Shown here: piece after piece, positions 1,325 through 51,267 of the stretch
How positions within the stretch are numbered: the first letter of the stretch is position 1
How the letters are laid out: the number at the start of each line of letters is the position of its first letter
Origin: a virus
Lineage: Duplodnaviria > Caudoviricetes
Direction: 5' to 3' (one strand)
DNA length: 64,000 bases
Virus record (IMG/VR): IMGVR_UViG_3300021426_000086
Coordinates: 11,366 to 75,365 of that record
Program-made: the position numbers and the translations under genes
Notes under the pieces: generated by a model
What the model was told of the DNA's origin: nothing
What the model saw: only the letters and a program-made list of their open reading frames with translations
Databases searched by the model: none

Positions 1325-1876
1325 TTCAGCAGCGGGCTTCTCTTCGTTGGCGGGCTCGGGGTAGAGGGCTTTGTAGGCGCTCCAGTCGATAGCGTCCTTG
1401 CGAGCCCATCCTGCCTGCTGGCATGCCAGTACATGCTGGGTGGTAGCGGTGCAGATGGCGTGCATTTCCTCGGCGTTAGCAAACTCCTCGAACACGGCTG
1501 TGCCGTCGGCCAGCTCGCCTACCTTATACTTCACGGGGAAGGTGAGCGCATCGGCATTCTGGTGCATGGCGTGGAAGTCGCTCTGGTTCTCCTTAGAGAG
1601 CCATACGTTAACATCGGTACCAGCCTGTGCGCCGTGCAGCACGGTGTAAGCAAAGCCACGGGTAATCTGCTCTACGGTGTCGGCATTGATGTCGGCCTCG
1701 ATGGCAGCCTTGATTACTGCAAAGGTAATCTGCTGCACTTGCTTGGTGGGCAGATAAACCTCGAACCACTCGTAGTTGTCCTTCTTGATCTTAACAAGTC
1801 CGTAACCAACTACCACGCGCGTACCTTCGTCGCGCACCAGAGCAAAGTCGCTCTTAACTCCATTCATTTTGTTCAT
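1322..1876 (-). CDS. tail-associated / fibre-chaperone-like protein (DUF4376-like)
   Basis: 184-aa ORF downstream of the DGR; family call from memory of similar phage proteins. Confidence 0.4.
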   Translation of the reverse strand: MNKMNGVKSDFALVRDEGTRVVVGYGLVKIKKDNYEWFEVYLPTKQVQQITFAVIKAAIEADINADTVEQITRGFAYTVLHGAQAGTDVNVWLSKENQSDFHAMHQNADALTFPVKYKVGELADGTAVFEEFANAEEMHAICTATTQHVLACQQAGWARKDAIDWSAYKALYPEPANEEKPAAE

Positions 1877-3074
1877 AATGCTTGTTATTTAAAGGTGAAT
1901 AATTATATAATGTAAACTTAGTAACGTCGCGGTCAAAATAGCCTATCTGCAGCAGCTTGGGTATAAGAAACAGGCGGCAGCGGATGTTGAACGAGTCGTA
2001 ATGGCTCAGCACGCCCAGAAACGAGTTGACTGACAGGAAGGCGTGTATAGGGTCGGCGGTATTGATTTTGTTCACATTGTATATCATGCGGTCGATAGAT
2101 GCGTTGCTGATATAACTGTGGCCATTCTTTACAAATGCGCCCAGAAACTCCACACCGCTGTAGGCATCAAGTGTGTGCAGCTTATTGCGGTTAAGCTCAA
2201 GCCCCAGGCGCTCGGCCAGAAACTGCTCGGCAGGGTCAATCAGGCTGCGCAGCCACTCCTTGCTGGTGCCTACCACAAACGAGTCATCTACATATCGGCC
2301 AAAGTGCTTGCAGCCCATCTCGCGCTTCATATACTGATCGAACTCATTAAGATACACATTCGAGAATAGCTGCGATGTAAGATTGCCTATGGGCAGGCCG
2401 CACCCGTCCATGGTGTAGAACAGGCTCTTGGCGTGGTCAAGCCCCTCCCAGTCGTCAACACTGCCTGCTATGCGGCAGTTGCCACGAGGGTCGAGCAGTG
2501 CTATCTCGCGTGTTAGCCACAGCAGGAAGTCGATATCAAGCTCATCGGCCCATGTGCAGCCTATGCCGCGCCCGCGTCGTGGTGCCATCTTCAGCAGGTC
2601 GGCACAGGCTATATCGGCCAGTCGCTGTCGGTCGATGTGCATAAAGTAGCCGCGCTTATCCAGCTTGAGCACCCAGCAGGGCTGCTGATAGCCACAACTG
2701 GCACGGCGTATGTGCATCTTCAGTCGCTCTATGCCGTAGTGCGTGCCTCGGCCTGGTATGCAGCTGTAGCAGTCCTCTATAAACAGGCGCTCGTACAGCT
2801 GGTGGGTGTAGTTGTAATACAGGTGGTGAAGCACGCGATCAGGGAATTGCGCTGCAAAAACCTCACGCTTTTTTGGGCGCTCTACTATAAAACAGCTTGA
2901 GGGTTCTGGCTTATACCGTCGGGCCATCAAGTCGTCGGCCATCTTATTCAGATTCTCGTCAAGATTCTGCTCGTATTTTACTACATACGGCTTACTGGCC
3001 TTGTGGCGCTTGGCGCTCACAAAAGCAGCATGAAGGTCGAGCAACAAATCCTCGCGAGTTAAATGGTATGCCAT
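1854..3074 (-). CDS. DGR reverse transcriptase (about 406 aa; alternative start 3110)
   Basis: GLPIGNLTSQLFSNVYLNEFDQ and RYVDD motifs; lies next to a TR/VR pair. Confidence 0.95.
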   Translation of the reverse strand: MAYHLTREDLLLDLHAAFVSAKRHKASKPYVVKYEQNLDENLNKMADDLMARRYKPEPSSCFIVERPKKREVFAAQFPDRVLHHLYYNYTHQLYERLFIEDCYSCIPGRGTHYGIERLKMHIRRASCGYQQPCWVLKLDKRGYFMHIDRQRLADIACADLLKMAPRRGRGIGCTWADELDIDFLLWLTREIALLDPRGNCRIAGSVDDWEGLDHAKSLFYTMDGCGLPIGNLTSQLFSNVYLNEFDQYMKREMGCKHFGRYVDDSFVVGTSKEWLRSLIDPAEQFLAERLGLELNRNKLHTLDAYSGVEFLGAFVKNGHSYISNASIDRMIYNVNKINTADPIHAFLSVNSFLGVLSHYDSFNIRCRLFLIPKLLQIGYFDRDVTKFTLYNYSPLNNKHYEQNEWS

Positions 3075-3137
3075 ATAGTCCTTTTTTGTTCTAAACAACT
3101 CTAATAACATCTGAATTATAAATAACATCAATAAAAG

Positions 3138-3325
3138 CTGAACCGGGCGAACAGCGAAACCGTTGAAGCGGTTGTTGTTGTTCTGCGGATTGACACCACC
3201 CGAATTGAAGTTCAGGTTGCGACCGTTCGTGGCGGAATTGAGCGACGACGACCAGTAGTTGCCGTTGGAGCCACGATTGTTCCACGACGTGCCATTACCG
3301 TTACCGGCGCACGGGAAGAACAAGA
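3138..3325 (-). repeat. DGR template repeat (TR), 188 bp
   Basis: Aligns without gaps to 4280-4467 with 14 mismatches, all at TR adenines on the coding strand; 17 AAY codons. Confidence 0.97.
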
Positions 3326-3550
3326 ACACGCCCGGAGAAACATCTCGTTACCACCTTGCTAACGTAAGGCCAGAACAGGCACCACCTGCGGGTAGCGTGG
3401 CTGAGCCAGTCTATGTTTTTCTGGGGGATTTTTCGCCAGCCCTAACCAGAGAGCAGCGGACGGATAACCTATGTAATTATCTACTGTCAAAAATAAAATC
3501 AGATATGTAAAAGAGCGCCCGTCGAAGCGGAGGTTTGTTTTTATATTTTG

Positions 3551-4276: not shown

Positions 4277-5356
4277 TTACTGAACCGGGCGAACAGCGAA
4301 ACCGCTGAAGCGGCTGTTGTTGTCCTGCGGATAGACACCACCCGAATTGAAGTACAGGCCGCGACCGTACGTGGCGGAATAGAGCGACGACGACCAGTAG
4401 CGGCCGTAGGAGCCACGATTGTACCACGACGCGCCATTACCGTTACCGGCGCACGGGAAGAACAAGATAGCGTTATTAATCTTACTCTTCAAGCGAATAC
4501 CAACGATACTATTCATCGTAATCAGCTTGTTAGTGGTAGCTGCAGCTATCACGTTACCATCGGCATCAATATAGTCGATATTGTTGAACAACTCGGCAAA
4601 CTCGCCCGTAGTAGGCATACGCCAAGGAGCGCCAAGGTTAGCGCGAGCAGCATCGAACGATGGCGAGATGTTGCCTGTAAGGGCTGCGCCTGGAGTGTCG
4701 GCATAAGGACCATCGTTGGCTGTACCCCAGTTGTAGTCGAACGCACTTGCGCTGATGGGGTTGTGCATCTGGGTGTTACCCCACGAGCAGAACGAGCACT
4801 CGTACTGATACTCGCTGGCGGCAAAGCCGTTGGCCTGAGTGATATCAATATTCTTCTTAGCCCAGAGCACGCCGCTTGGCAAGCCCATATCTACATAAAG
4901 ATCGCTGGGGCTGCCACCACCTTCCAAGCCCATCAAGCCCACAATGTTGTAGGCCGAGCCATCGTAGCACATAATGGCTGTCATACCAGCCTTGATAACG
5001 CCTGGCTGCAGATTGCTGCCGTTAATCTTTATGTTCTTAGCACCTGTGCTGCTGATGTTAAGTGTGGCATCGGCCACGTTAACGGCATTGGCAAAGCGGA
5101 TGGCCACAAAGCCATTCTTCAGCAGAATAAAGTCGGAGATAGAGGCCGTTTTAGCGGCAGTGGTAGCAGCTGTGCTACAGGTGGCCTGTCCACTACCAGC
5201 GGTGGCAAGGTCCTGTATAAGCTGGCGTGCCAGATACTTGCCGGCAGGTGTACCGTCGGCGTTGAACAACATTACAGTCTGTGCCGCACCTGGTGCAGCC
5301 TGACTCAGCCCGGCCTGTATAGCCTTGAGCATGTTTAAACCTGTAATCGTTTCCAT
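4277..5356 (-). CDS. DGR target: tail fibre / receptor-binding protein with a C-terminal CLec-type variable domain
   Basis: YVDMGLPSGVLWAKKNI and WRMPT motifs; VR encodes the last 62 aa; gene ends the tail operon. Confidence 0.85.
   Translation of the reverse strand: METITGLNMLKAIQAGLSQAAPGAAQTVMLFNADGTPAGKYLARQLIQDLATAGSGQATCSTAATTAAKTASISDFILLKNGFVAIRFANAVNVADATLNISSTGAKNIKINGSNLQPGVIKAGMTAIMCYDGSAYNIVGLMGLEGGGSPSDLYVDMGLPSGVLWAKKNIDITQANGFAASEYQYECSFCSWGNTQMHNPISASAFDYNWGTANDGPYADTPGAALTGNISPSFDAARANLGAPWRMPTTGEFAELFNNIDYIDADGNVIAAATTNKLITMNSIVGIRLKSKINNAILFFPCAGNGNGASWYNRGSYGRYWSSSLYSATYGRGLYFNSGGVYPQDNNSRFSGFAVRPVQ
4280..4467 (-). repeat. DGR variable repeat (VR)
   Basis: 188-bp copy of TR with A-to-N substitutions only. 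Confidence 0.97.
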
Positions 5357-5406
5357 GTGATAATTTTAAAAAATTTATAAATAATCTCTTAACTCTCAAT
5401 TCCAAA

Positions 5407-5922
5407 TTAACCATTGATAACCACCGTCTTTGGCATCAGGCTTGCCACTGCCTGCAGCAGTTCGCTCACAGTGTATTGCTGGCCGTTAACGGTGTAAGTA
5501 TCGGTGGGCTGCACAGCGCTGCCAGCCTTGCTGCGTATGGTGGCCAAATCACTGATAGCATCCTGCTTGGCAGCCAGAGCGGTGTTTATGCTCTCTACCC
5601 AATACTCTATGCTGGCATCGGTAAATATCTCCCAGTCGGTGTTGGGCGTAGCATTGCTCACCACAAAGGCAATCTTGCCGTTAACCGTGTGTACCACAAA
5701 GGCATTGCCCTGCGTAACCATGGTGCATGGCAGGTTGCTGGTGGCCTTGGTGCTGCGATACAGCACGCCATTAATGCCCACCACGGCGTTTTTAACAAAC
5801 GTACTCGATGGCGTCATGCTCGATACTGCCACGGGGTGCAGCATGTCGTCGGCCAAAAGTTTTGTACGGAATCGCCCGAGCCGTCGGGTTGTCACATACT
5901 TAGTTGGATTCGTTATTGCCAT
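5407..5922 (-). CDS. putative tail fibre-associated protein
   Basis: 171-aa ORF; N-terminus MAITNPTKYV mirrors MALTNPTKYV of the neighbouring gene. Confidence 0.55.
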   Translation of the reverse strand: MAITNPTKYVTTRRLGRFRTKLLADDMLHPVAVSSMTPSSTFVKNAVVGINGVLYRSTKATSNLPCTMVTQGNAFVVHTVNGKIAFVVSNATPNTDWEIFTDASIEYWVESINTALAAKQDAISDLATIRSKAGSAVQPTDTYTVNGQQYTVSELLQAVASLMPKTVVING

Positions 5923-6023
5923 AATCTTATCTTTTTAAAGTTGCCTACGGTATTTTTTTTGTAACCCTGCGGGGAGTCGAACCCCGCAAGGTTTGGTAGT
6001 TAAGCGTGATTTTACCGTAGCAA

Positions 6024-6893
6024 CTATGAGAAGATGCTGTCGATATCGTCGTCTGAGCACTCCTGCAAGCCTGCCAGCTGCTCAGCCTGTGCAGCAGTCA
6101 TCAAACCAGCCTGACCGCCCACACCAGAGGTAGATGCAGATACAGTCTGCACGGTCTTTTTGTGTGGAGTGATTACACCGTTAGCATCCTGGCTGATGCT
6201 GTCGATGAAGTCAACGCCAGTGCCGTCGGCTGATGGATCGTTAACAGCGGTCTGCTTGGTCTTGTACTCAGAGAGTGCGTGACTGCTGTCAACGGGGTTG
6301 CCGTTGGCGTCAAAGATGGCGATGTTGTCAGCCACAGCGTCGGTGTCCTTGTCGGCCTTGCCAGAAATGTCCTGGTGGGCAACGAGTACCTGCTGAGAGA
6401 GACCACTCTTCAGAGTGATGTTCTTCTTAGTGGCGTCGCCATCAACAGCCTCGATGGCCATCTCGCTCTTCAGGGCGTAGCCTGAGAGGTCGTACATACC
6501 CTGGAAGATGTCGTACTTGTAAACGGGCTCGGCAGCAGTACCAGTGTTAGCCACGTAAACGTTAGCACCTGCAGGAATGCTGTGGCCAGCACCCTCGGCG
6601 AAGTCAGCAGTTGTTGTGAACGCATCGGTGATGTTCCACATCCATCCCAGACAACCAGCTACCAGGTCGGTGGCAGGAGCCAGGCCAGCGAAAGCCTTAG
6701 AGCCCTTTGGTACGATGGCCGATGGGATGGCTGCAATCTTACCCAGCAACTCAGCCAGAGCTTCCTCTACGGTCTGAGCTGTGAGGCCAGTGATGGCTGC
6801 GATAGCCTGAGTCTGATACTTAGCAGCGAGCTTTGTCTCGAAACGCTGCAATCTCTGTACGCTAACGTACTTTGTAGGATTAGTCAATGCCAT
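6024..6893 (-). CDS. putative tail fibre-associated protein
   Basis: 289-aa Ala/Asp-rich ORF in the tail operon. Confidence 0.55.
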   Translation of the reverse strand: MALTNPTKYVSVQRLQRFETKLAAKYQTQAIAAITGLTAQTVEEALAELLGKIAAIPSAIVPKGSKAFAGLAPATDLVAGCLGWMWNITDAFTTTADFAEGAGHSIPAGANVYVANTGTAAEPVYKYDIFQGMYDLSGYALKSEMAIEAVDGDATKKNITLKSGLSQQVLVAHQDISGKADKDTDAVADNIAIFDANGNPVDSSHALSEYKTKQTAVNDPSADGTGVDFIDSISQDANGVITPHKKTVQTVSASTSGVGGQAGLMTAAQAEQLAGLQECSDDDIDSIFS

Positions 6894-6979
6894 AATCTAA
6901 CAATTTTTAAAAATGAAACTTTAGTTAACTATAATTGAGTTGTTACTCAATTCGTTTTTGTGTCGGAGAGGCGCAGGGG

Positions 6980-7279
6980 CTATTTCTTTTTCTTAGCCCT
7001 CGGCTTAGCAGGTTTCTTAGCCTTCGGCTCGGTGCTTGGCTTTTCTGCCTTCTTAGTTGGCACTCTCATCGTTACAAACAGCTGCCCTTTGGCATCCTGC
7101 ATCAGCAACTTGGTTTGACCAGTTTCGCGGCAGTAGTCGCCAAAAAACTCGGTAAACATCGTCATAATCTCCTCGCCGGTTACTTTGTGTGCGTCGGCAC
7201 TCAGTTCGCCGTTCTTCAGCTCGCGAGCGGCATAAAAGCCATCGTCGCGGCGGTACATTTCAATTTTTTTCTTTTCCAT
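6980..7279 (-). CDS. hypothetical protein
   Basis: 99-aa ORF with a Lys-rich tail, in operon. Confidence 0.65.
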   Translation of the reverse strand: MEKKKIEMYRRDDGFYAARELKNGELSADAHKVTGEEIMTMFTEFFGDYCRETGQTKLLMQDAKGQLFVTMRVPTKKAEKPSTEPKAKKPAKPRAKKKK

Positions 7280-7315
7280 ATCGCCAGAATAATATTAAAC
7301 ATGAAACATTAAATA

Positions 7316-7573
7316 TTATATATCGTCGTTGCCATCGTCGGCGCCAGCGTCATAGCCAGCATCGTCGTCGTTGTCGAAGATCTCGTCGATATCGCTGTCG
7401 GTAGCTTCGTTCTCTTCCTCGCTCTCGTCGATTTCATCCTGGATTTTCTGCGGAATGGTTTCCTGATCGTCAACACCTGTCATTACCTGCATCAGTTCGG
7501 GTATGGTGTTAACGGCACCATTGGGGTCTTTGCCCTCGATGAGCTGCAGGAACTGCTCACCCGTCATTTGCAT
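7316..7573 (-). CDS. acidic hypothetical protein
   Basis: 85-aa ORF abutting 7574; Asp/Glu-rich C-terminus. Confidence 0.65.
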   Translation of the reverse strand: MQMTGEQFLQLIEGKDPNGAVNTIPELMQVMTGVDDQETIPQKIQDEIDESEEENEATDSDIDEIFDNDDDAGYDAGADDGNDDI

Positions 7574-8089
7574 TTAAACTTTGCCCATATCTTCTACTTC
7601 GTTAGATAATTGATTCGTGAATTGTATGCGCTTGCCGTCGCTGGTGTAAACATAGCGGCCATAGCAGTCGGCCAGATAGTCCTCGCCATCTATGCTGCAG
7701 CTCCACACCTGCTCGTACTGCACGGGGCAGGCAGCTGGGTGGCGCTGGCGGCGCTGGCGCATCATGCAGCCCTCTCGGCAAACAAACAGCACTTGTCGGT
7801 CGGTCCAGATGCGCTGCTGCTCGTCGTAGTCCTCATCCTCGTAGGCTCCGATAAAGATGGCAGTGTAAGTGCCCACCTGCGGATTGGTGATATTGAAATA
7901 CCATCGGCCCTGGTCGTCGTAGTAGCAATCGTTCTTAGTGATGCGATGCACCGTGCGTCCCAGATTGTTCTTTATAACGATATTCCACTTATCGCCCGCC
8001 AGGGTGAAATCATCCTTGGTGGTGGTAAGTCGGAACTTCAGGTCGGTGCCTGGGCACACGGCTGGTATGGTTCTTTGCTCTGTTGCCAT
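7574..8089 (-). CDS. hypothetical structural protein
   Basis: 171-aa ORF in the tail operon. Confidence 0.65.
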   Translation of the reverse strand: MATEQRTIPAVCPGTDLKFRLTTTKDDFTLAGDKWNIVIKNNLGRTVHRITKNDCYYDDQGRWYFNITNPQVGTYTAIFIGAYEDEDYDEQQRIWTDRQVLFVCREGCMMRQRRQRHPAACPVQYEQVWSCSIDGEDYLADCYGRYVYTSDGKRIQFTNQLSNEVEDMGKV

Positions 8090-8442: not shown

Positions 8443-10308
<1,866 letters not shown>

Positions 10309-12972: not shown

Positions 12973-15393
12973 TTATGCTATTATCTGATTCTGAATTATA
13001 AGCTGCTCGCTGCCATCCTGTACGGTGGCGCTGCAGGTAAAGATGGCCTTGTTGCTACGGCTCCAGGCGGTTGGCATATCGTCGTTGCCCAGATTCAGCA
13101 CGTTGGTGCCTTGGTGGGCGGGCATAGCGTCCCAGGCTTGGTCGGCCTCGGTCTTGCCACTCTCCGATGAGCGCGTCCAACCAAATGCAGCGGCGCCTAC
13201 GGTGGCGGTAACATCCTCGTCGCCCCAATATAGATGGGCAGTAACCACGGTGCTAACATGGCCTTGATAGAAGGCATCGCCATTTGTCGAGGCAAATCCC
13301 ATGGTCCACAGCATGTAGCCGCTTATAACCTTCCACTTGGTGCAACCGTACTTAGGCTCTTGGGCGGTGCCGTCCTCAAGGCACTCCCACAGTTTATTGT
13401 TATTCCACACGCGGCTCACCTCAAGATCAACCTCTTCGCGCCACTCCTCATACATCTTCAGCAGCAGCTGCTTGTCGCTCATACTGCCGTAGTGGGCGGT
13501 ATCGAGTCGGTAAGTCAACCACTGGTTCATAGTAAACGTGCGATAGTGGTAGCCATCGGCTATGGTGTCGCCAGTAGCATAAGTGCCGGCATAACCATTG
13601 ATTATCGGCAACTGCGCAGCGTAGTCGGCCAGCTCAGGGTCGGTGGCATCAAGTGTGCCATCGGGGGTGTAGGTGCCGCTGTAAACACCATCGTAAGTAC
13701 TGGTCGGGTTGGCGCTCCACTGCCCGCGATCCACCTTCTCTACCTTAGCGGGGTAGTTGGCACGCGCCTGATGGTCGTAGAAAATTGTGTTGACGTAGAG
13801 CGACGGCATTTCGCGATTGCGCCAGTCTGGAAGGTTGGCCAGCTCGGGCAGTATGCCCAGGCACAGCGCGTACATATCATCAAGAATGATGGGCTGATCT
13901 ACTCGCCAGAAGAATGTAAGTCGCTTATCGGTGGTGCTGAGCACCCAAGCCTGCTGGCGACCCAACTGGCTCTGGTGTATATGCTCATCGTACTGACCTG
14001 TATCAGGATTGATGCCATCGGCCACGTTACCATGGCGGGTAACGGTAAGCATAGTGTCGTAACCATCAGGACCCACGGTGGCAGCCTCTTGCTGCATGGG
14101 TGTGCCCACATCGGTGGTAATCTGTGTGCCGTAAGGACTGAAGTTGCTACCACCAGGAACGATTGGCTCGTAGATGGGTTGGTGCTGCTCGTCGTAACCA
14201 CTGATGCGACGGCCTTGATACAGTGCCACGCGCAGCACGTTCTCGGTAAGATCAACGCTCTTTACACGCATCCACGTCTTAAAGTAGCTGCCGTTGGCCG
14301 TTGGAGTATGGCCGTCGGGCACTGCGCTGCCGCGAGGCAACAGGTCGTTCTTTATACCATAGATAATGTCGCCGGGGTAGAAGGGGGTATAGTCGTTGTC
14401 GTGGTCTTTGTGCATGTGCAGCACTAAGGTCTGTCCGTCGTCCTCATAGTCCACGTGGTCCACGGTGTCGCCCTCGGTAAAGCTATAGTCGCTCTCCATC
14501 AGCTGCAAGCGGTTGATGATAAGCTCCATCACTCGTATAAAACCGCGCACGTTCATGCCGTCGGTCTCAATCAGTCCCTCAAGCGCGTCCATCCAGATGC
14601 CCTTACCATCGGTAAAGCCACGGCGGGCACCGAGCGACTTCAGGACCTTCTCGAATGTTATATCATCCTTAAACGTTATCTTGCCCTGGGCTATATCGTC
14701 CTTAACCTTGCTGAGAAAAAATTTGCTAACATAGTTTGGCGTGGCCACCATCTTGTCGCTATCCACTGGCACTGCCAGGGCGCTGGTAGCTACGTCGATA
14801 AGTTCCTTGTTGTTAAGTATGAAGTTGATAAACGAGGCATCGCCCACCTTCATCTTAATCTGCTTAAGGAAGGTCACAATGTCGTCCTCCTTTGAATACG
14901 AGTACCAGTCGGTCTCGGTGACGTCCATTATGTCCTCGTAGGTACCCAGACTACCCGAGTCCATCAGCTGTATAAAGTGGCGCTGTGCTGGGTTCTGGTT
15001 GTCGGGCTCGCTGATTATGCCCTGCAGCCAGATGTAGTAGTAATCCTCAGAGCCTATCTGCTGCTCATTCTCGTTCACGCCGTATATGTCGAGCAGTTCT
15101 GATGGATAAACCACCATGGCCTGCACGCCCACATCGGCGCTGCGGGGGATGGCTACGTAGATGTACTTCTCTGAGTTATTGTTGAAATATGTTGGACTGA
15201 CTGCCAGCGACCATCGGCGGGGATTGCGACCATTGTCAAGGTCAAGGCCCTCTATACCCTCTATATAGCACGATACCACCGCATTGCTGGGCACACTGAC
15301 CTGCACGCGGTTGGCATTGCCCAGGGCATTAAGCGTAATATTAACAGCCCCTGGCGCTATCCAGTATTGATTAGTCTTAGCATATATGCTCAT
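12973..15393 (-). CDS. putative tail / baseplate-like protein
   Basis: 806-aa ORF in the tail operon. Confidence 0.55.
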   Translation of the reverse strand: MSIYAKTNQYWIAPGAVNITLNALGNANRVQVSVPSNAVVSCYIEGIEGLDLDNGRNPRRWSLAVSPTYFNNNSEKYIYVAIPRSADVGVQAMVVYPSELLDIYGVNENEQQIGSEDYYYIWLQGIISEPDNQNPAQRHFIQLMDSGSLGTYEDIMDVTETDWYSYSKEDDIVTFLKQIKMKVGDASFINFILNNKELIDVATSALAVPVDSDKMVATPNYVSKFFLSKVKDDIAQGKITFKDDITFEKVLKSLGARRGFTDGKGIWMDALEGLIETDGMNVRGFIRVMELIINRLQLMESDYSFTEGDTVDHVDYEDDGQTLVLHMHKDHDNDYTPFYPGDIIYGIKNDLLPRGSAVPDGHTPTANGSYFKTWMRVKSVDLTENVLRVALYQGRRISGYDEQHQPIYEPIVPGGSNFSPYGTQITTDVGTPMQQEAATVGPDGYDTMLTVTRHGNVADGINPDTGQYDEHIHQSQLGRQQAWVLSTTDKRLTFFWRVDQPIILDDMYALCLGILPELANLPDWRNREMPSLYVNTIFYDHQARANYPAKVEKVDRGQWSANPTSTYDGVYSGTYTPDGTLDATDPELADYAAQLPIINGYAGTYATGDTIADGYHYRTFTMNQWLTYRLDTAHYGSMSDKQLLLKMYEEWREEVDLEVSRVWNNNKLWECLEDGTAQEPKYGCTKWKVISGYMLWTMGFASTNGDAFYQGHVSTVVTAHLYWGDEDVTATVGAAAFGWTRSSESGKTEADQAWDAMPAHQGTNVLNLGNDDMPTAWSRSNKAIFTCSATVQDGSEQLIIQNQIIA

Positions 15394-40739: not shown

Positions 40740-42032
40740 ATGATGAATGCTACATTAACTATCATCCACGACCGCAAACGTAAGGCGGTTGGTACCAACA
40801 AAGAGGCTGTTTTGGAGGTTCGCGTCACCCGCCACCGCCGCAGCATACACGTAAGCACTGGCATCAAGGTTCGCCACAGCGAGTGGGTGGCTGGTCGCGT
40901 GGTGGGCCGTCTCGATGCTCAGGTGCTCAACGATCAGCTGGCCATCATATATAATAAGGTGGGCTCGGCTGTTAACGATGCCATCCGCACGGGACAGCCG
41001 ATTGATGCCGACGTTATCAAGCACAAGGTGTGGCAGGTGGCCGAGGAGCGCACCGATAAAGAAACGCTCATCGAGTGGTGCGCGGCGCAGATACCCGTGC
41101 TAAACATCAGCGAGGGGGCCAAGAAGCACTATCGCGCACTCATCAACCGATTGGATGAGTACCGCCGATTGCGCCGATTTGCCGACTGCACGCCCGAGGC
41201 TATCTGTCAGTTCGATGCGTGGCTGCACTCCCTGCGCCGGCCATCCACCAAAGCTGCCCAATCTGCCAAATCTGCCAGGGGACTGCCCCCTGGCATAACC
41301 GATAAGCTGCCAGGTAGCTGTCTCCTGGCAGATGTGCCCGTCACCTTCAGTCGCTTGGGCGATGGGCTCAGCGATGCGGGCGTGTATAACTATCATAAGT
41401 GCCTTAAAGCCCTGCTGCGCCGTGCCCGATTGTTCAACAAGATAGAAACTAACCCTTACGATTTATTAAGAGGCGAGTTCAAACGCGGCGACTGCGAAAA
41501 CATCGAGTTCCTTACGTGGGATGAGATGCAGCGCATCATCCATCTCAACCTGCCCGAAGGCAGCAAACTGCAACGCAGCCGCGACTTATTCGTTTTCCAA
41601 ATGTTTACTGGTCTGGCCTATAGCGATGCCATGGCGTTCGACTTCTCGCAGTACCGATGGAATGGCTCGGCGTGGGTGTATCGTGGTCGCCGCGTAAAAA
41701 CGGGAGTTCCCTTTGTCAGTCAGCTGCTGCCGCCGGTGGTAGATGTGCTGGAGCGCTATGGCGGACAGCCACCACGCATGGATAATGCCGACTACAATCA
41801 CGAGCTCAAAACCATCGGCATGCTCGCCCAGTCGTCGTGCCCGCTCCACTCCCACCTGGCCCGCCACACCTTTGCCACGTGGATGCTGGCCAACGGCGTC
41901 AAGGTAGAAAATCTGCGCCGGATGCTGGGCCATAAGAATATCGCTCAAACCATGCGATACGCCAAGGTGCTCGACCAGTCGGTCATCGACGAATACCAGA
42001 TGATTGAGGCCAAGCTCGATGCCAGGGGATAA
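40740..42032 (+). CDS. int: tyrosine integrase, Bacteroidetes type
   Basis: N-terminal arm-binding region; FTGLAYSD, HLARHTFAT, LGH..I..T..Y motifs. Confidence 0.92.
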   Translation: MMNATLTIIHDRKRKAVGTNKEAVLEVRVTRHRRSIHVSTGIKVRHSEWVAGRVVGRLDAQVLNDQLAIIYNKVGSAVNDAIRTGQPIDADVIKHKVWQVAEERTDKETLIEWCAAQIPVLNISEGAKKHYRALINRLDEYRRLRRFADCTPEAICQFDAWLHSLRRPSTKAAQSAKSARGLPPGITDKLPGSCLLADVPVTFSRLGDGLSDAGVYNYHKCLKALLRRARLFNKIETNPYDLLRGEFKRGDCENIEFLTWDEMQRIIHLNLPEGSKLQRSRDLFVFQMFTGLAYSDAMAFDFSQYRWNGSAWVYRGRRVKTGVPFVSQLLPPVVDVLERYGGQPPRMDNADYNHELKTIGMLAQSSCPLHSHLARHTFATWMLANGVKVENLRRMLGHKNIAQTMRYAKVLDQSVIDEYQMIEAKLDARG

Positions 42033-45650: not shown

Positions 45651-45904
45651 TTATAAATCGTGTTCGATGAATACACATAGGCTGGTGGAGCCTGTCATAA
45701 TAGTGCCTGCGATGTGACCGCGATCAGTTACGCGGGCTCTACGGGTTATGCTTGAGGGGTAGTCGATGTCGAACACGCCCTGCGGGTCGCACTCGATGTA
45801 GCCTTGTTCGGTGGCTTGGCGGATTCGGAGCACGATTTGCCCCCCCTCGCAGCGATTTCAAGGAACGGTCGGGATGATGTTTTATATATCATTGATTCAC
45901 TCAT
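45651..45904 (-). other. MTase TRD-like cassette M15, out of frame (G7 at 45840-46; G8 restores)
   Basis: With G8: ...RGGQIVLRIRQATEQGYIECDPQGVFDIDYPSSITRRARV...GTIMT...FIEHDL. Confidence 0.8.
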
Positions 45905-46095
45905 ATTCTATTAGTATTACCGTCTTTGGATAGTGAGCCAAGGTGAGGATATCTTCTGGCAGCTGCATGCCGTCGTAACGAGTATTGAGTGTGCAAACAC
46001 ATCCTCCAGTGGTAACATTGACTGGCAGGCAGTACCCCCCCCCTAACAGGTTTGGCCGTAGCCTGATTGGTGCAGTGCAGTTTAATCGTATTCAT
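45897..46095 (-). other. TRD-like cassette M14, out of frame (G9; G8 restores)
   Basis: With G8: ...RGGYCLPVNVTTGGCVCTLNTRYDG...ILTLAHYPKTVILIEYE. Confidence 0.8.
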
Positions 46096-46219
46096 ACTCT
46101 ATCATTACCATTTGGTTGCGGTCGCTCATCGGGTTGGCACATACGCTGAAAGCATAGGGCTTGATGCTGAGCGATGGTTTGTCGCGGTCTCCTACTAATT
46201 GAATCATCCTATATCTCAT
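46082..46219 (-). CDS. TRD-like cassette M13, no tract
   Basis: MRYRMIQLVGDRDKPSLSIKPYAFSVCANPMSDRNQMVMIEYEYD; paralog of M7. Confidence 0.75.
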   Translation of the reverse strand: MRYRMIQLVGDRDKPSLSIKPYAFSVCANPMSDRNQMVMIEYEYD

Positions 46220-46352
46220 ACTCTATCATAACCTTTGGGATGTTGCCAGAACCTTCGCCGCTCTTGACGGCACGGCAAATGTCGTTGACGTAATACACAT
46301 TCTGCGTGAACCACCACGACAGCCTCCCTATTCGCTTCTTAATCGTATTCAT
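46209..46352 (-). CDS. TRD-like cassette M12, no tract
   Basis: MNTIKKRIGRLSWWFTQNVYYVNDICRAVKSGEGSGNIPKVMIEYEI. Confidence 0.75.
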   Translation of the reverse strand: MNTIKKRIGRLSWWFTQNVYYVNDICRAVKSGEGSGNIPKVMIEYEI

Positions 46353-46488
46353 ACTCAAATAAAATCGAAGTCATGCTGGCTTGCCCCCCCCTCAATAGGG
46401 TGGCAGCATAAAACTTGTAGCAGCCGGCAAGGATGGCCTTGGCGGTGCCGTCGCAGTTACTGTTGATGTATTGTATCTTAATCGTCAT
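46339..46488 (-). CDS. TRD-like cassette M11, in frame (G8)
   Basis: MTIKIQYINSNCDGTAKAILAGCYKFYAATLLRGGQASMTSILFEYEYD. Confidence 0.75.
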   Translation of the reverse strand: MTIKIQYINSNCDGTAKAILAGCYKFYAATLLRGGQASMTSILFEYEYD

Positions 46489-46620
46489 ACTCTACAATAA
46501 TCTTTGGAAGGCCGAAGTCGGTAGTTCCGATGCAAGGACACCAAGTACCCCCCCAACTATATCGACTACAGCGGCATGGTGCTGCATCGAACCTAATATA
46601 GTAATTACCTTATACGTCAT
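46478..46620 (-). other. TRD-like cassette M10, out of frame (G7; G8 restores)
   Basis: With G8: ...VDIVGGGTWCPCIGTTDFGLPKIIVEYDD. Confidence 0.75.
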
Positions 46621-46797
46621 ATTCTATCAGTGCTACAGTCATGGGATAGTGTGCCAGTGAGATGATGTTGGTTGGGCCAACGGCATCGTAACGGGTAGTG
46701 AGTGTGGCAGCGCAACTGTCGCCAGTGGTGTTGATGGCTCTGATTTGCCCCCCCTAATGCGCTTAATCTTCCCAATATTCGTTGTTCTATATTTCAT
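46610..46797 (-). other. TRD-like cassette M9, out of frame (G7; G8 restores)
   Basis: With G8: ...RGGQIRAINTTGDSCAATLTTRYDAVGPTNIISLAHYPMTVALIEYDV. Confidence 0.8.
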
Positions 46798-46968
46798 ACT
46801 CTATCAATATATACGGTGTGGTGTTATACATACCTGTGGCTGAATCTTTCCCAATACCCCCCCACATAGCGAGGTTATGGTGTTGCACGTCTGTTTTAGG
46901 TGATATTTTGAAACATCACCCTTTCCGCTGCCATGCCGCGTCCATCCTATAAATTTATATTTCAGCAT
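46787..46968 (-). other. TRD-like cassette M8, out of frame (G7; G8 restores)
   Basis: With G8: MLKYKFIGWTRHG...CNTITSLCGGGIGKD...TTPYILIEYEI. Confidence 0.8.
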
Positions 46969-47092
46969 ACTCTATCAATATCATTTGGTTGCGGTCGCTC
47001 ATCGGGTTAGCACATACGCTAAAAGCATAGGGCTTAATGCTTAGCGATGGGGCATCGCGGTCGCCTACCAGTTGTATCATGCTATATATCAT
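46955..47092 (-). CDS. TRD-like cassette M7, no tract
   Basis: MIYSMIQLVGDRDAPSLSIKPYAFSVCANPMSDRNQMILIEYAEI. Confidence 0.75.
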   Translation of the reverse strand: MIYSMIQLVGDRDAPSLSIKPYAFSVCANPMSDRNQMILIEYAEI

Positions 47093-47237
47093 ACTCAACC
47101 AAAAAAGATGGTTCCCGATTACCCCCCCCCATACAGGTTAGCGCGGGGCAAACACCTTGCAGGCTCCATACACCATAGGCAAAGCCCGTGTTGTACTTAG
47201 GGTTCTTGCTATTGCCGAGATATATTACTCTATTCAT
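47082..47237 (-). CDS. TRD-like cassette M6, in frame (G9)
   Basis: MNRVIYLGNSKNPKYNTGFAYGVWSLQGVCPALTCMGGGNREPSFLVEYDI. Confidence 0.8.
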   Translation of the reverse strand: MNRVIYLGNSKNPKYNTGFAYGVWSLQGVCPALTCMGGGNREPSFLVEYDI

Positions 47238-47523
47238 AACTCTCTCTCTATCCATACCAGATTATCTTTTTGTACTGATGTGATGGTGTTGGTGGCTTGC
47301 GACGACCCGAGTTCGATAACTTGGTGGAATGGTCGCTCGCCGTGCGGACCACGGAAGCCTACATCCTCTACATCGCGGTTCACCATTGCGCATACTCTCA
47401 CATTACCCCCCCATATTCAGGGCAGCGGTTGCGCAGATAGGTTTCTGCACCGCGCCCTCGGCTGGCTGAAATCCTTACGGGTTTCATACCCTCACTTGGT
47501 TCTGTATCTTTAATCAGTATCAT
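47234..47523 (-). other. TRD-like cassette M5, out of frame (G7; G8 restores)
   Basis: With G8: ...YGGGNVRV...HQVIELGSSQATNTITSVQKDNLVWIEREL. Confidence 0.8.
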
Positions 47524-47674
47524 ATTCTATCAATACGCTTACATCGAATTTCGTTGCTTTCAGACTGCGAGATATGTCGGGCAGCGGTGGATGCACGAAG
47601 TCGGCTCGCACAAAGGCATAGATGCCGTAGTACCGCCTTGGGCATTGCCCCCCCCTCAATCCTTTATCACTCAT
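47510..47674 (-). CDS. TRD-like cassette M4, in frame (G8)
   Basis: MSDKGLRGGQCPRRYYGIYAFVRADFVHPPLPDISRSLKATKFDVSVLIEYDTD. Confidence 0.8.
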   Translation of the reverse strand: MSDKGLRGGQCPRRYYGIYAFVRADFVHPPLPDISRSLKATKFDVSVLIEYDTD

Positions 47675-47875
47675 ATTCAGTAATCAATAAATTATCTTTC
47701 TGTACGCCGGTGATGGTGTTGCTGCAACCATCGGTGGCAGGGTAGTAGTTGCGGTCGGCAAAGTGGCAGTGCCCCCCCTGTCGCCGTAGGTGCGGCGCAC
47801 TGCGCGGGCGTGCTCGGTTCGCACACCCCGCAGCACGGAACTACTCACCACTTCTGGCTTGTGCAATTTCTTCAT
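47667..47875 (-). other. TRD-like cassette M3, out of frame (G7; G8 restores)
   Basis: With G8: ...YGDRGGHCHFADRNYYPATDGCSNTITGVQKDNLLITEYE. Confidence 0.8.
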
Positions 47876-49160
47876 CGCTCAGCTTGTGATCTGTTACCAC
47901 GTAGTGAATCTGTGCAGCCTCGGTGGCCTCATTCACGGTCAGGAACTTAATCACCGAGTCGGGCTTCAGGAAAAAGCGCTCATCCACATTATCCTCCAGC
48001 ACATCGGCTATGCACTTATCCAGTTCAAAGGGTCGCGGAAACTCATACTGTGTGCCATTCAGCAGGTCGGCACGTATGCTCACCATATACACTCGCTCGC
48101 GGTTCTGCGGCACGCCGTAGTGCTTGGCGTTCAGTATGCCTGCCACGGTTTTGCGGTCGCGCTTGTCGGTGCCCCAAGGGATAGGGAACTGGGGTGCCAG
48201 AAAGTTCACGTAGCCGTGGCTCTCAAGCAGTTTGCACCACTCTTTAAAATCGGGCATATTCACGCTGTTAATCAGCGCACGTACATTCTCCTGCAACAGC
48301 ACCTTTGGGCGCATGTGGCGCACGGCTTCCTCGGTGCTCCACAGCACGGCACTGCGGGTGCCGCTGCCTTTCTTGATGCCCTCGCGCTTGCCGGCCTGAC
48401 TGATGCTTTGGCAGGGGGTCGAATATGTCAGCAGGTCGATCTCGGCATCTTCAAGGTTGCTCCAGTCGGCCTTGGTCATATCGCCTCGGTTCAAGTCTTT
48501 GTACTGCGGAAACAGCAGGTTGTGGGCCACCACGGCTGGCTGCTCGTCCAGAGGGCGTGTGCTCTCGGGGTCGAACTCGCTCCATGCCATCAGCTTCCAT
48601 CTAAAATCCTTATATCGCTGCTGCAGCATATCCATGGCTATGGCTTGGCTATCGTAGCCGCTACATAATGTAACCAGTTTCAGTGGTTGTTTCTTCCAGT
48701 CGCGCGATAGTCGGAATTGTGGCAGTGCAAACAGGTCGGTTTGTTCGTTCGGCAGTCGGCGACCGGTGGGGTACATCAGTTCCTCGTAGATATACATCAG
48801 CACGTCGCACACTATCGAATTTCCTGCCAGCTTGTAGTGTGATGAGTTGGAGATAATCTGCACATCGCCGTAGCGCTGCTCTTGACTTGCAGCGATGATG
48901 GCCTGATAGGCTTGATCGTAATTCTGTCGTAATAGTGCGTTTTCCTCGGTATCAGCCTCCTGCTCCTCGGCTGTGATGCGCTGCAGGTCGGCATCGTCGG
49001 TTGGCATATCGTCGTCAGATGGTCGGTTCTCAAGGCTCTCTATGGCCTCGCGGTAGGCTTCGTCAACCTCTCGGCGTGTGGCACCGGGTTCCAGTCCGAA
49101 TACGGTCAATTGGGCATCTACGCCCGTCCAGGCCATATACGGTTTCTTTTCTGTTTTCAT
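47841..49160 (-). CDS. C5 cytosine DNA methyltransferase core, circularly permuted (motifs X, I, IV, VI, VIII)
   Basis: YKLAGNSIV (X), TLCSGYDS (I), YSTPCQSIS (IV, catalytic PC), ENV (VI), YGVPQNRERVY (VIII). ATG 49160 overlaps the upstream stop. Confidence 0.9.
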   Translation of the reverse strand: MKTEKKPYMAWTGVDAQLTVFGLEPGATRREVDEAYREAIESLENRPSDDDMPTDDADLQRITAEEQEADTEENALLRQNYDQAYQAIIAASQEQRYGDVQIISNSSHYKLAGNSIVCDVLMYIYEELMYPTGRRLPNEQTDLFALPQFRLSRDWKKQPLKLVTLCSGYDSQAIAMDMLQQRYKDFRWKLMAWSEFDPESTRPLDEQPAVVAHNLLFPQYKDLNRGDMTKADWSNLEDAEIDLLTYSTPCQSISQAGKREGIKKGSGTRSAVLWSTEEAVRHMRPKVLLQENVRALINSVNMPDFKEWCKLLESHGYVNFLAPQFPIPWGTDKRDRKTVAGILNAKHYGVPQNRERVYMVSIRADLLNGTQYEFPRPFELDKCIADVLEDNVDERFFLKPDSVIKFLTVNEATEAAQIHYVVTDHKLSDEEIAQARSGE

Positions 49161-49507
49161 AAGTGTTGCAATCTGTGGGGGGGGGGTACTCCCATCAGAC
49201 TGTAGCACTCTACAGGTGTAAGTTTTCGGATGTCGAAGTAGCGCACAGGGTGCGTTGGGTCCTTCTTGCCTTGCAAGTCGGGATGCCCGTCGGGATAAAT
49301 TTTTGCAATCATAAATTTTCTGAGTTTATTTATAGTTCTTTCTTCGCATACGAAATAGTGGTTACGCGATGATATGCCTGCAAGTATGGTTATCGCTATC
49401 TGGCGATGCGCCTGCTGGTTGTAGGTGTCGAGCATTTCGCCATGGTAGTCTGGCTCCCAATACCCCCCCTGAATCATTGCGTTTAGCCGCGAGTTATTAT
49501 AGTTCAT
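49157..49507 (-). CDS. TRD cassette M2 (G7, in frame) fused to MTase motif IX; C10 separates it from the core
   Basis: MNYNNSRL...LDTYNQ...ITI...NHYFV, then IRKLTPVECYSLMGV (motif IX). C8 or C11 would join it in frame to the core. Confidence 0.85.
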   Translation of the reverse strand: MNYNNSRLNAMIQGGYWEPDYHGEMLDTYNQQAHRQIAITILAGISSRNHYFVCEERTINKLRKFMIAKIYPDGHPDLQGKKDPTHPVRYFDIRKLTPVECYSLMGVPPPHRLQHL

Positions 49508-49645
49508 ATTCAATCAGTATCTTAGGTTTGTCGGTATCGTGCCCATTACCCCCCCTGCAAGGCAAAGGGCAGGCCCTTTGGGGCTTACCACTATGCCGTT
49601 TTGGCTGGGGCTGTACTGACCCAGAATAATAGGTTTATCGCTCAT
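49497..49645 (-). other. TRD-like cassette M1, out of frame (G7; G8 restores)
   Basis: With G8: MSDKPIILGQYSPSQNGIVVSPKGPALCLAGGGNGHDTDKPKILIEYEL. Confidence 0.8.
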
Positions 49646-49959
49646 ACCTCGGGATGATTACTCTGCCTTGCACTCCATTCCAGGTTGGTGTAGTGATTAT
49701 TGTCGCGGTTGCCATCCTTGTGCAGCACGTTAGGTAGGTTGTCGGGGTTGGGAATAAATGCCTCGGCCACCAGGCGGTGTACCTTAAACGTCTTACCCTG
49801 CAGACGCACGCGGCGGTAGCCTTTGCCATTGAAAGTGGCAATGCGGTGCCACGTCTTTGGGTCGCTCTCTGGGTTGGTGGTGCTCAGCACCTGACCATCA
49901 TCAGTAACATAATAAATGGTTTTACCCTTCTGGTAAAATTTCTGAATTGTTGCTCTCAT
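49642..49959 (-). CDS. HNH endonuclease (homing type)
   Basis: VHRLVAEAFIPNP.NLP.V.HKDGNR.NN...NLEW. Confidence 0.88.
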   Translation of the reverse strand: MRATIQKFYQKGKTIYYVTDDGQVLSTTNPESDPKTWHRIATFNGKGYRRVRLQGKTFKVHRLVAEAFIPNPDNLPNVLHKDGNRDNNHYTNLEWSARQSNHPEV

Positions 49960-50019: not shown

Positions 50020-51267
50020 TCAGCGCCCCTGGCGGGCGAGGTGGATGGTGACGCTCTGGCCGAAGTATTGGCGGATGATGGCGTTAAACTGGTCGGCCTC
50101 TGTGCCGGTGGTCAGGCGGTCGGCCAACTGGGGTTGACTGCGATCGTACACGTAGGTAACGGTGTGCGACTGCTGCTTGTAGTTGCCAAACCACACGTCG
50201 GCACCGCTTAGCTCCATGTCCTGCTTCAGTCGCTCCCACACCTTCTCTTTTGCTGCCATTGCCTGCTCGGGTGTTAGTCCTGGCTCTGCCGCCTCGGCCT
50301 GTGCAAACATATCGGGCGTGGTGTCGGGTGCTGGCAGGTGGGCGTGGTTCACCACCACGTTGTAAGCCGTTCCCAGTGCCGTATGTTTTACGTGGAACAC
50401 CACTGCCTCGGGGTCGCCCTTGCGGCGTGTGCCTGGGTAGTGCAGGTCGTAGGTGTATGTAATGTCGGTGGTTGGTGGCTCTTGGCTGGCCATGCGCTGC
50501 AAATCTTTCTGTACGGCATCCAGCACCTTCTGCTTAAAGTTCGAGAACATCGGATAGGCCGTGGCCGATATGCCCAGATACTCCTTCAGTTCCATCAGCG
50601 GAATGCGCACGTCGGTCTGCTCGGCGCCTTTGGGCAGTGCCCGCATCAGCAGCAGATATATGCGCGGTGTGCTGCGCTTGGTGCTGTAGAGTGCTATCAT
50701 CTTCAGGTGGTTCACGTAGCCCTTACTCATGTCGAATGCCCACTGTGCTGCGTCGGGGTTAATCTTCACGTCGATATATGCCGTCTTGCGTGGCACTGCA
50801 TCGGGCTGTCCGTCCTTGCGTGTAAAGCTGTACCAGTCGCCCGTGTCTTTAAACCCGAACTGACTGAACACGTTGGTTCGCAGTATGCGCCCAGTTGGTC
50901 GGCCTTCGTCGTCAAACTCGGGATGATCCACCGCCATGTTTATCTCGTCGATGGCCCGTCGGGCAGCTTCGTAGTTGCTGGGTTGCACTCCCAGGTCTTG
51001 CAGCCATATCCGCAGCGGTGGTATGCCCTCCTGCAGCACGTACTGACTGAATAGCGGCTTGGGTGTGCCTTTGGCTCGGTCCAGCTTCATGTCGTAGAAT
51101 CGCTTAATGTATGGTGCCAGCACGTCCGTCACCATCAGCAGCGCCTGTTGCTGTATCAGGCTCAGTCCTGCCATCAGTGTGGTGTACGTCCAAGGTGTCT
51201 TGCTCCATGTGCGCTGTTCCACCATCTGCTGCATCAGCTCTAATTGCGTTAAACTATTATTTGGCAT
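50020..51267 (-). CDS. plasmid-type replication initiator (Rep_3/RepB winged-helix family)
   Basis: IPLMELKEYLGI...YPMFSNFKQKVLD motif; iteron-like repeats upstream; next to parA. Confidence 0.7.
   Translation of the reverse strand: MPNNSLTQLELMQQMVEQRTWSKTPWTYTTLMAGLSLIQQQALLMVTDVLAPYIKRFYDMKLDRAKGTPKPLFSQYVLQEGIPPLRIWLQDLGVQPSNYEAARRAIDEINMAVDHPEFDDEGRPTGRILRTNVFSQFGFKDTGDWYSFTRKDGQPDAVPRKTAYIDVKINPDAAQWAFDMSKGYVNHLKMIALYSTKRSTPRIYLLLMRALPKGAEQTDVRIPLMELKEYLGISATAYPMFSNFKQKVLDAVQKDLQRMASQEPPTTDITYTYDLHYPGTRRKGDPEAVVFHVKHTALGTAYNVVVNHAHLPAPDTTPDMFAQAEAAEPGLTPEQAMAAKEKVWERLKQDMELSGADVWFGNYKQQSHTVTYVYDRSQPQLADRLTTGTEADQFNAIIRQYFGQSVTIHLARQGR

Follow-up and report, generated by a model that had tools for sequence, protein, structure and literature searches.

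The orphan cytosine-C5 methyltransferases (C5-MTases) of Bacillus phages, namely M.SPRI, M.Phi3TI, M.Rho11sI, M.H2I and MtbP of SPbeta, combine one catalytic core with several target recognition domains (TRDs) of about 40-50 aa that carry a T(L/I) motif, and they are presumed to serve an anti-restriction role. The locus described here occupies positions 45,651 to 49,645 of a stretch of 64,000 nt (hereafter "the window") from the Caudoviricetes record IMGVR_UViG_3300021426_000086. It shares the single core, the type of TRD and the presumed role with the Bacillus phage enzymes, but the latter contain tandem TRDs in one polypeptide with the canonical motif order, whereas the window encodes up to 15 TRDs, most of them with a mutable G tract, in separate open reading frames (ORFs) next to a permuted core. 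Our reading, to which we assign a probability of roughly 70%, is that the locus encodes an orphan multi-subunit phage C5-MTase whose permuted core receives its TRDs mainly in trans from switchable mini-genes.

Circular permutation has been described for natural C5-MTases whose N-terminus is placed in the variable region, with motifs IX-X located ahead of motifs I-VIII (PMC5944983). The core of the window is permuted like M.BssHII, M.Alw26I, M2.Eco31I, M.Esp3I and M2.BsaI, and the fused ORF of one related locus (L013) exhibits exactly their topology. However, enzymes of the M.BssHII type are single chains with one covalent TRD, whereas the TRD is detached, multiplied and switchable in the window. 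Natural two-chain C5-MTases, in which chains translated separately and divided within or close to the variable region assemble into an active enzyme, are represented by M.AquI, with motifs I-VIII on the alpha and TRD-IX-X on the beta subunit (PMC5944983), and by M.EcoHK31I, an active heterodimer with motifs I-VIII, X and the TRD on the alpha chain and motif IX on a beta chain of its own (PMC2836561). The window as assembled, with a tract of ten C residues (C10), is divided at a point between motifs IX and X and in this respect resembles M.EcoHK31I, and a related locus (L101) shows an M.AquI-like split with cassettes between the halves. Both enzymes nevertheless consist of two fixed subunits with one specificity, and no free TRD-only subunit or library of alternatives is known for them.

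In phasevarions, slippage in simple sequence repeats flips a methyltransferase gene in and out of frame (PMC11868660). Frame switching of a methyltransferase by repeat slippage is thus shared with Mod of Haemophilus and Neisseria and with the poly-G methyltransferases of Helicobacter and Campylobacter, but these are cellular enzymes in which one tract controls the whole enzyme, whereas the phage locus harbors 12 tracts that each affect one specificity module. Specificity on a separate, exchangeable subunit, as in the scheme proposed here, is the principle of HsdS, which provides stochastic variation of specificity in populations (PMC11868660). The HsdS systems differ in their N6-adenine or N4-cytosine chemistry, in the site-specific recombination of hsdS copies and in their unrelated proteins. 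All ingredients, i.e., multispecific phage C5-MTases, permuted or split C5-MTases and phase variation at simple sequence repeats, are known, and the novelty lies in free, individually switched TRD genes. In the literature searched, which covered few subscription journals, neither arrays of free TRD genes nor poly-G switching of a phage C5-MTase is described; within this scope, a previous sequence-only reading of this DNA was right to regard the layout as undescribed.

The positions of all features are compiled in Table 1. The core ORF contains, in this order, an insertion of ~130 aa, motifs X (YKLAGNSIV), I (LCSGYDS), IV (TPCQSIS), VI (QENV) and VIII (QNRER), and a conserved C-terminal tail (IHY.VTDHKLSDEEI), and it thus harbors the catalytic motifs of a C5-MTase. 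Motif IX (RKLTPVEC) is located upstream in unit UB, where it follows a TRD (TRD0) and a Met-IAKIYPDG segment; it forms a single ORF with the core in the related loci L002, L005 and L013. The Met and motif IX are nearly invariant across the aligned relatives. The resulting order of IX, X, I, IV, VI and VIII represents a circular permutation with its breakpoint in the variable region. The frames of UB and the core are separated by the C10 tract, and a length of C8 or C11 would fuse them. As assembled, UB ends at a TGA eight codons past C10, which overlaps the ATG of the core (TTATGA) in a geometry typical of translational coupling. The equivalent tract is an in-frame C8 in L003, L004, L006 and L007, C9 in L008 and C7 and C8 in L117 and L118, while L002 and L005 lack a C tract and encode PPQQ in frame instead. 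The acidic insertion between motifs IX and X (48700-49160, minus strand; core residues ~1-130) is probably helical; it is present in a clade of relatives with high GC content and missing from a low-GC clade.

The array region, in which every gene is located on the minus strand, comprises 14 free mini-genes and a fifteenth TRD, UB, fused to motif IX. Reading in three frames with systematic single-base repair resulted in 15 minus-strand units that correspond to M1-M15 of the sequence-only reading and reproduced its tally. The G tract is in frame in four units (UB/M2, G7; U2/M4, G8; U4/M6, G9; U9/M11, G8), eight units are out of frame and repaired by one base each (UA, U1, U3, U6, U7, U8 and U13 with G7, +1; U12 with G9, -1), and three (U5, U10, U11) have no tract. 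The proposed shape of the modules was likewise borne out by the translations: free cassettes comprise 45-96 aa, end in hhEY(E/D)-like tails and contain T(L/I)-type motifs (SNTIT, TNTIT, CNTIT, AATLT, CTLN, PALT, GTIM). The paralogous units U5 and U11 form a direct repeat of 139 nt with 86% identity, and a GSGNIPKI motif like that of U10 is also found in the TRD-IX-X ORF of L101.

The junctions between cassettes are uniform. In all 85 adjacent pairs of the window and its relatives (85/85), the next ATG overlaps the 3' end of the preceding cassette by 4-22 nt, and it is embedded in the codons for hhEY(E/D), as GAG TAT GAG includes ATG when read in the +1 frame. At most junctions, the frame shifts by a constant +1 from one cassette to the next. 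The junction motif provides stops in all three frames, which should make ribosomes terminate next to the following start whatever their frame. OFF frames were open to the next junction in 23/65 and 20/65 cases versus 14.4 and 13.6 expected from codon shuffles (z 3.0 and 2.2), a statistic from related loci that is suggestive only of selection for OFF-frame read-through. The stops can be explained without an alternative genetic code, given that table 11 leaves the long genes nearby open and that every cassette starts with an ATG of its own. At its head, the array contains an HNH endonuclease gene, which is conserved at this location inside the arrays of L002 (~5001-5261), L005 (4702-5028) and L026 (3877-4236) and is tied to its neighbours via the same overlapping stop and start as the cassettes; possible roles are that of a homing element by which cassettes are moved or that of a component of the system itself.

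Table 1. Features of the methyltransferase locus and of the remaining window (window positions; ON/OFF, G tract in or out of frame as assembled).
Feature	Position	Strand	Description
HNH endonuclease gene, head of array	49642..49959	-	Pfam HNH_3, E 4.9e-08; TGA stop overlaps ATG of UA
UA	49497..49645	-	free TRD cassette type A (..YSPSQNGIVVSP.G..GGGNGHDTDKPKILIEYEL); G7 at 49549-49555 OFF, needs +1
UB	49157..49507	-	TRD0 fused to Met-IAKIYPDG segment and motif IX (RKLTPVECYSLMG); G7 at 49463-49469 in frame
C10 tract	49177-49186	-	between motif IX and rest of enzyme; G10 on + strand
Catalytic core	47841..49160	-	from ATG MKTEKK; PF00145, E 1.7e-36; no TRD
U1	47667..47875	-	free TRD cassette (..RTEHARAVRR.YGD.GG..SNTITGVQKDNLLITEYE); G7 at 47772-47778 OFF
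U2	47510..47674	-	free cassette; G8 at 47648-47655 ON
U3	47234..47523	-	free TRD cassette (..TNTITSVQKDNLVWIEREL), 96 aa repaired, family 2; G7 at 47406-47412 OFF
U4	47082..47255	-	free TRD cassette (..CPALTCMGGGNREPSFLVEYDI); G9 at 47122-47130 ON
U5	46955..47092	-	free cassette without tract, paralogue of U11
U6	46787..46968	-	free TRD cassette type D (..CNTITS..GGGIGKDS.TGMYNTTPYILIEYEI); G7 at 46857-46863 OFF
U7	46610..46797	-	free TRD cassette type E (..AATLTTRYDAVGPTNII.LAHYPMTV.LIEYDV); G7 at 46748-46754 OFF
U8	46478..46620	-	free TRD cassette (..CPCIGTTDFGLPKIIVEYDD); G7 at 46548-46554 OFF
U9	46339..46488	-	free cassette (..AATLLRGGQASMTSILFEYEYD); G8 at 46384-46391 ON
U10	46209..46352	-	free cassette without tract (..GSGNIPKVMIEYEI), singleton family
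U11	46082..46219	-	free cassette without tract, paralogue of U5
U12	45897..46095	-	free TRD cassette type E' (..CTLNTRYDGMQLPEDILTLAHYPKTVILIEYE); G9 at 46035-46043 OFF, needs -1
U13	45651..45904	-	last cassette, type G, 84 aa repaired; G7 at 45840-45846 OFF
C-run starts	45840, 46035, 46384, 46548, 46748, 46857, 47122, 47406, 47648, 47772, 49463, 49549	+	
Reverse transcriptase	1854-3329	-	phrog_1423, E 4.6e-81
Tail-fibre-like genes	8443-10308 and 12973-15393		
Tyrosine integrase	40740-42032	+	phrog_1
Rep_3-like initiator	50020-51267	-	PF21205, weak match

The distribution of G/C homopolymers sets the array apart from the rest of the window. All 13 runs of at least seven G or C are located within 3.7 kb (45840-49555), and 12 of them are runs of 7-9 C on the plus strand and hence of G on the coding minus strand. 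Mononucleotide shuffles gave 6.8 such runs per window and 0.45 in the array region, with a maximum of three, whereas the remaining 60 kb contain none versus ~6 expected. Runs are thus both concentrated in the array and avoided elsewhere. The 12 G tracts and the C tract set the reading frame from within coding sequence, which is the hallmark of a contingency locus.

The layout is carried by more than 30 related contigs of phages, metagenome-assembled genomes (MAGs) and isolates from Prevotellaceae and other Bacteroidales, mostly from the rumen. A protein-guided scan of IMG/VR recovered nine loci (L002-L010) with core identities of 58-85%, in which G7-G10 runs flank the core on both sides and are nearly absent elsewhere in the 13-kb loci. 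Scans of JGI metagenomes and GTDB genomes added dozens more, including 30-odd metagenome contigs and Prevotellaceae MAGs, and the cultured isolate Prevotella sp. MGM1 (L026) carries the layout as well. In the low-GC clade (L011-L017; ~40% GC), the same free cassettes occur as intact ORFs that lack runs; Gly-Gly-Gly is encoded there by GGT GGA GGT, versus GGG GGG GG in the high-GC clade. In L013 one N-terminal TRD is fused, resulting in a single ORF of 438 aa (TRD-IX-X-I..VIII). The core ORFs of L002 and L026 begin just before the Met of MIAKIYPDG, which is conserved in 15/15 loci examined, and every TRD of these two loci is therefore free. A 98% identical copy of U2 (window 47520-47659) is found in L108 (2561-2701) and a 97% identical copy of U8 (window 46467-46626) in L106 (1548-1707), both at other array positions, while the cores of L106 and L108 are only 80-92% identical to that of the window. 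According to these sequence comparisons, phages have exchanged cassettes as modules in the course of evolution.

Several relatives deviate from the architecture of the window. L101, a Bacteroidaceae MAG, contains an ORF with motifs I-VIII, about 12 cassettes and finally a TRD-IX-X ORF (4968-7969); its cassettes end in hhhEDE or EDD and contain ten G tracts of 7-9. Tract clusters like those of L101 are located downstream of the core in L030, L048, L054, L085, L086 and L087. Muribaculaceae, Porphyromonadaceae and Bacteroides genomes (L072, L073, L075, L077) possess a more distant C5-MTase locus with G/C tracts at shared positions (~4955, 5535, 5735 and 8915) that vary from 7 to 12 in length across genomes, and this looks like another phase-variable methyltransferase locus. 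Finally, in L005 (8226-8538), L002 (9037-9440), L003 (7944-8260) and L004 (2193-2509) two tails that overlap in different frames lie behind one G tract, an arrangement not found in the window. One tract length leads to an E'-type TRD and another via ~70 alternative-frame codons to a second TRD (..HGNCPKILIEYE) without a start of its own, and a single tract of this kind may thus choose between two specificities.

The 120-odd cassettes of 16 loci, read through the tract where needed, were grouped into ~19 families. The assignment of the cassettes as TRD units by the sequence-only reading is corroborated by their homology to single TRDs of M.H2I and M.Rho11sI. A tblastn search of 2.3 Gb with U4 retrieved the H2 methyltransferase (E 8e-4) and that of rho11s (7e-3), in addition to those of phi3T and SPbeta, and the match corresponds to the variable region (aa 327-353 of 503; 63% identity over 27 aa). 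In local pairwise alignments, type A, the type of UA with orthologues in 13 loci, aligns to aa 327-353 of M.H2I and M.Rho11sI and type D to aa 267-315, with the ILIEY at the cassette end matched to the IAVEY that ends the TRD. The type D alignment is based on the relatives L003_3, L005_3, L007_8 and L008_8, with U6 (W_6) absent from the matches listed. The cassettes accordingly share TRD homology with the multispecific phage C5-MTases but not their tandem arrangement in one polypeptide. A type A profile searched against 1.84 billion proteins yielded 75 representatives, nearly all of 33-111 aa, which indicates at sequence level that the free-standing state is the rule for this type; one match is a TRD-IX-X chain of 162 aa. 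About half of the type A matches end at the tract position and were therefore called from OFF alleles. Pfam searches with single cassettes found no family, profile searches of types A, D and G against PDB sequences gave chance matches only (E > 0.2), and tblastn of type A against phages returned a single weak match (E 0.7).

The ratio of nonsynonymous to synonymous substitution rates (dN/dS) documents that the cassettes are maintained by purifying selection, whose absence would have contradicted the sequence-only reading. Comparison of the repaired window cassettes with their orthologues resulted in a pooled dN/dS of 0.13 (range 0.04-0.35), with synonymous sites near saturation; values for individual units were 0.12-0.22 for U6, 0.06-0.18 for U7 and 0.09 for U9 versus L005_9. 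The low ratio holds even for pairs that are OFF in both genomes, and the repaired frame is therefore the selected frame. The cassettes are, moreover, intact in the tract-free relatives.

Near-identical relatives provide direct insight into the mutability of the tracts. L007 and L132, which originate from different metagenomes, show no substitution in 4,651 nt and three differences that are all G-tract lengths, and L112 and L113 are free of substitutions over 2,882 nt, their two differences both being in G tracts. Indels in G/C tracts account for 7/9 between L117 and L118 (0.7% divergent) and for 8/14 between L007 and L008 (3.4% divergent), where cassettes flip from ON to OFF as well as from OFF to ON; tract lengths likewise differ between L003 and L004. 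For the U1 tract, contigs with matching flanks exhibit G7 in six and G8 in six cases, and the counterparts of the window C10 in such contigs are C7 or C8. The U13 tract has lengths of 6, 7, 7, 8, 8 and 9 in related contigs, the U12 tract is G8 in L111 and L119, and the U9 orthologue L005_9 is OFF with G7. According to a tally of ten loci, G7 is OFF in 29 cases and ON in one, and G8 is ON in 22 and OFF in five, which shows that most tracts toggle between two adjacent lengths. As the sequence-only reading had anticipated for related phages, relatives identical in sequence differ only at the tracts, and this is the signature of hypermutable switches as seen in the relatives.

A structural model of the complex was calculated for the TRD-less core of L005 (from the conserved Met; 85% identical to that of the window) and an in-frame type A cassette of the same locus. 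It scored 0.85, 0.82 and 0.85 versus 0.00 for the best of three controls; the score mark applied is reached by 58/80 solved complexes and 2/110 mismatched pairs. At least 59% of the contacts are shared between the runs, and the predicted local distance difference test (pLDDT) of the partner is at least 71. Cassette residues 43-47 (the tail ILIEY) are predicted to contact core residues 24-31 (RYFDIRKL), a strand just before motif IX, and residues 21-26 (the SP.G.A loop) to contact PQN of motif VIII and the following segment; several residues of the insertion (72, 88-93 and 111-129 in the numbering of the L005 chain) also contact the cassette in the model. The modelled site is the place of the covalent TRD in ordinary C5-MTases. 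The docking of a free cassette onto the core, a central idea of the sequence-only reading, is supported by the prediction for L005, in which the cassette fits as the missing piece of the core; its binding in the cell is a separate matter.

The proposed mechanism builds on the anatomy of the locus, its conservation, the TRD homology, the purifying selection and the tract hypermutability observed among relatives. Both ends of the chain (IX-X-I..VIII) would meet at the usual TRD site because of its circular permutation, and the TRD would be supplied mainly in trans by proteins of 45-96 aa from the 14 translationally coupled mini-genes. Each core would bind one TRD at a time, the hhEY tail pairing with the strand before motif IX and the T(L/I) loop resting on motif VIII, and the outcome would be a mixture of holoenzymes with differing specificities, comparable to HsdS subunits or sigma factors on one core. 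The twelve G7-G9 tracts would shift their length far faster than substitutions accrue, mostly between G7 (off) and G8 (on), while the C tract would additionally toggle the link between the motif IX module and the core. The presumed purpose is a population-level variation of the self-methylation pattern of the phage, hedging the shielding from host Type II restriction against the avoidance of methyl-dependent (Type IV) restriction or of cost. The 2^12 patterns previously derived from 12 independent switches stand as an arithmetic ceiling, but one tract is located in the fused TRD and two cassette pairs are paralogous. On balance, we lean slightly towards the broader proposition that C5-MTases are able to operate in the manner of Type I enzymes or RNA polymerase, in that a core without specificity of its own samples small exchangeable, mutationally switched TRD subunits, which would generate thousands of patterns per lineage and continually re-match the phage to host restriction.

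A number of points weigh against this mechanism. Permuted M.MpeI and M.SssI were inactive after being split by engineering into a small and a large domain (PMC5944983), and assembly in trans is therefore not automatic. The model was calculated with the chains of a relative and its pass may reflect the likeness to, or the memory of, solved single-chain C5-MTases. The C10 of the window consensus splits motif IX from the core, so that the whole enzyme may be switched off. That separate peptides are made and determine specificity is, like the methylation output and the biological purpose, what we infer. Two-way tract variation between near-identical genomes was found in relatives and not in the strain of the window itself: all tract polymorphism is located between assemblies of relatives, none of which exceeds ~92% identity to the window, and the best match in a search of JGI metagenomes for a near-identical copy reached only ~92% DNA identity. 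Since the collections hold no near-identical contig, switching within this phage population is something that we can only infer. Furthermore, families A, B and H are conserved despite being OFF in almost all relatives, a pattern that free toggling between ON and OFF accounts for poorly and that points tentatively to phenotypic slippage or constant counter-selection. Their ON state may usually be counter-selected, e.g., by methyl-dependent restriction.

The persistent OFF state of these families leads to the alternative scenario that the tracts mainly act as expression attenuators, with slippage of RNA polymerase or the ribosome on G7-G9 giving a minor in-frame fraction at any DNA length. Low and tuned expression of all cassettes would suit many TRDs that compete for one core, seven of the eight OFF tracts in the window are G7 and need exactly +1, and dN/dS in families A, B and H is low. 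Bypass also has a precedent in the laboratory drift of M.HaeIII, where frameshifts in homonucleotide runs, G and C included, were bypassed and functional enzyme was made (PMC3812077). We nevertheless consider attenuation as the main function unlikely: tract lengths change in both directions between otherwise identical genomes, most families include both ON and OFF members, the ON length being G8, and the low-GC clade works without tracts. Heritable switching and slippage are not exclusive of each other, and transcriptional or translational slippage may contribute to bypass in families A, B and H. A further suspicion, that the frameshifts are assembly errors in homopolymers or that the cassettes are decaying pseudogenes, deserves very little credence. 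Homopolymers are indeed error-prone and seven tracts are short by exactly one base, but the same mixture of ON and OFF recurs across dozens of assemblies made independently, among them an isolate genome, the differences in state run both ways, and G8 and G9 tracts of the same contig are in frame. Neither errors nor decay agree with a dN/dS of 0.13 that includes OFF/OFF pairs or with the lack of G/C runs in the other 60 kb.

Recombination offers a different use for the same cassettes, namely as a silent library that is moved by recombination or gene conversion into the slot beside motif IX, comparable to pilS/pilE or hsdS shufflons. A 23-nt junction repeat is conserved at eight junctions, the cassette order varies, cassettes with 94-98% identity occur elsewhere in phages that are 80-92% identical overall, and the loci differ in whether TRD0 is fused or free. 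On the other hand, the array contains neither inverted repeats nor a dedicated recombinase, every cassette has its own ATG over the previous stop in 85/85 pairs, L002 and L026 lack a fused slot, and the right border of TRD0 shows no junction sequence; this scenario is accordingly quite improbable. The suggestion of the sequence-only reading that cassettes might recombine into the core thus found no support, the junction repeats being short and degenerate (70-87% alike). An invertase-type shufflon was rejected, since no inverted repeats other than the homopolymers themselves are present. It is also hard to imagine the array being read as one long multi-TRD polypeptide like M.SPRI via programmed frameshifts at the junctions, for which we see hardly any chance. 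After thirteen shifts in a row next to no full-length product would remain, an ATG is kept at every junction, the junction motif has stops in three frames, and the low-GC clade possesses the same separate ORFs. The homology to the tandem TRDs of M.H2I and M.Rho11sI, the constant +1 offset at most junctions and a permuted topology that places all cassettes between motifs VIII and IX are what this idea could explain.

The window is part of a linear viral contig of 75 kb in IMG/VR with an estimated completeness of 76%. The genome of this rumen-type phage also encodes a NAD-dependent ligase, together with the integrase and the putative initiator listed in Table 1. Prophage-like stretches related to it are found in members of the Bacteroidales, Prevotellaceae and Muribaculaceae among them, which mostly originate from rumen and gut. 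A megablast comparison of the array region with GenBank phages gave no match. The reverse transcriptase gene is located a few kb from the tail-fibre genes, and together they may form a diversity-generating retroelement; if so, the phage would possess two separate diversification systems.

If the TRD peptides act in trans, the locus would represent the first C5-methyltransferase with exchangeable specificity subunits and a natural answer to the split that the engineering of M.MpeI and M.SssI failed to reach (PMC5944983). The presence of the system in the cultured isolate Prevotella sp. MGM1 makes experiments feasible. The short, portable modules, with ~19 families in 16 loci, are a possible parts list for programmable 5-methylcytosine methylation, and annotation is affected as well, since such arrays are now called as strings of hypothetical or truncated mini-proteins. 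For the biology of the phages themselves, the system would be the counterpart of bacterial phasevarions and would provide a concrete mechanism by which temperate phages of Prevotella and other Bacteroidales face the diverse and changing restriction of their hosts in rumen and gut.

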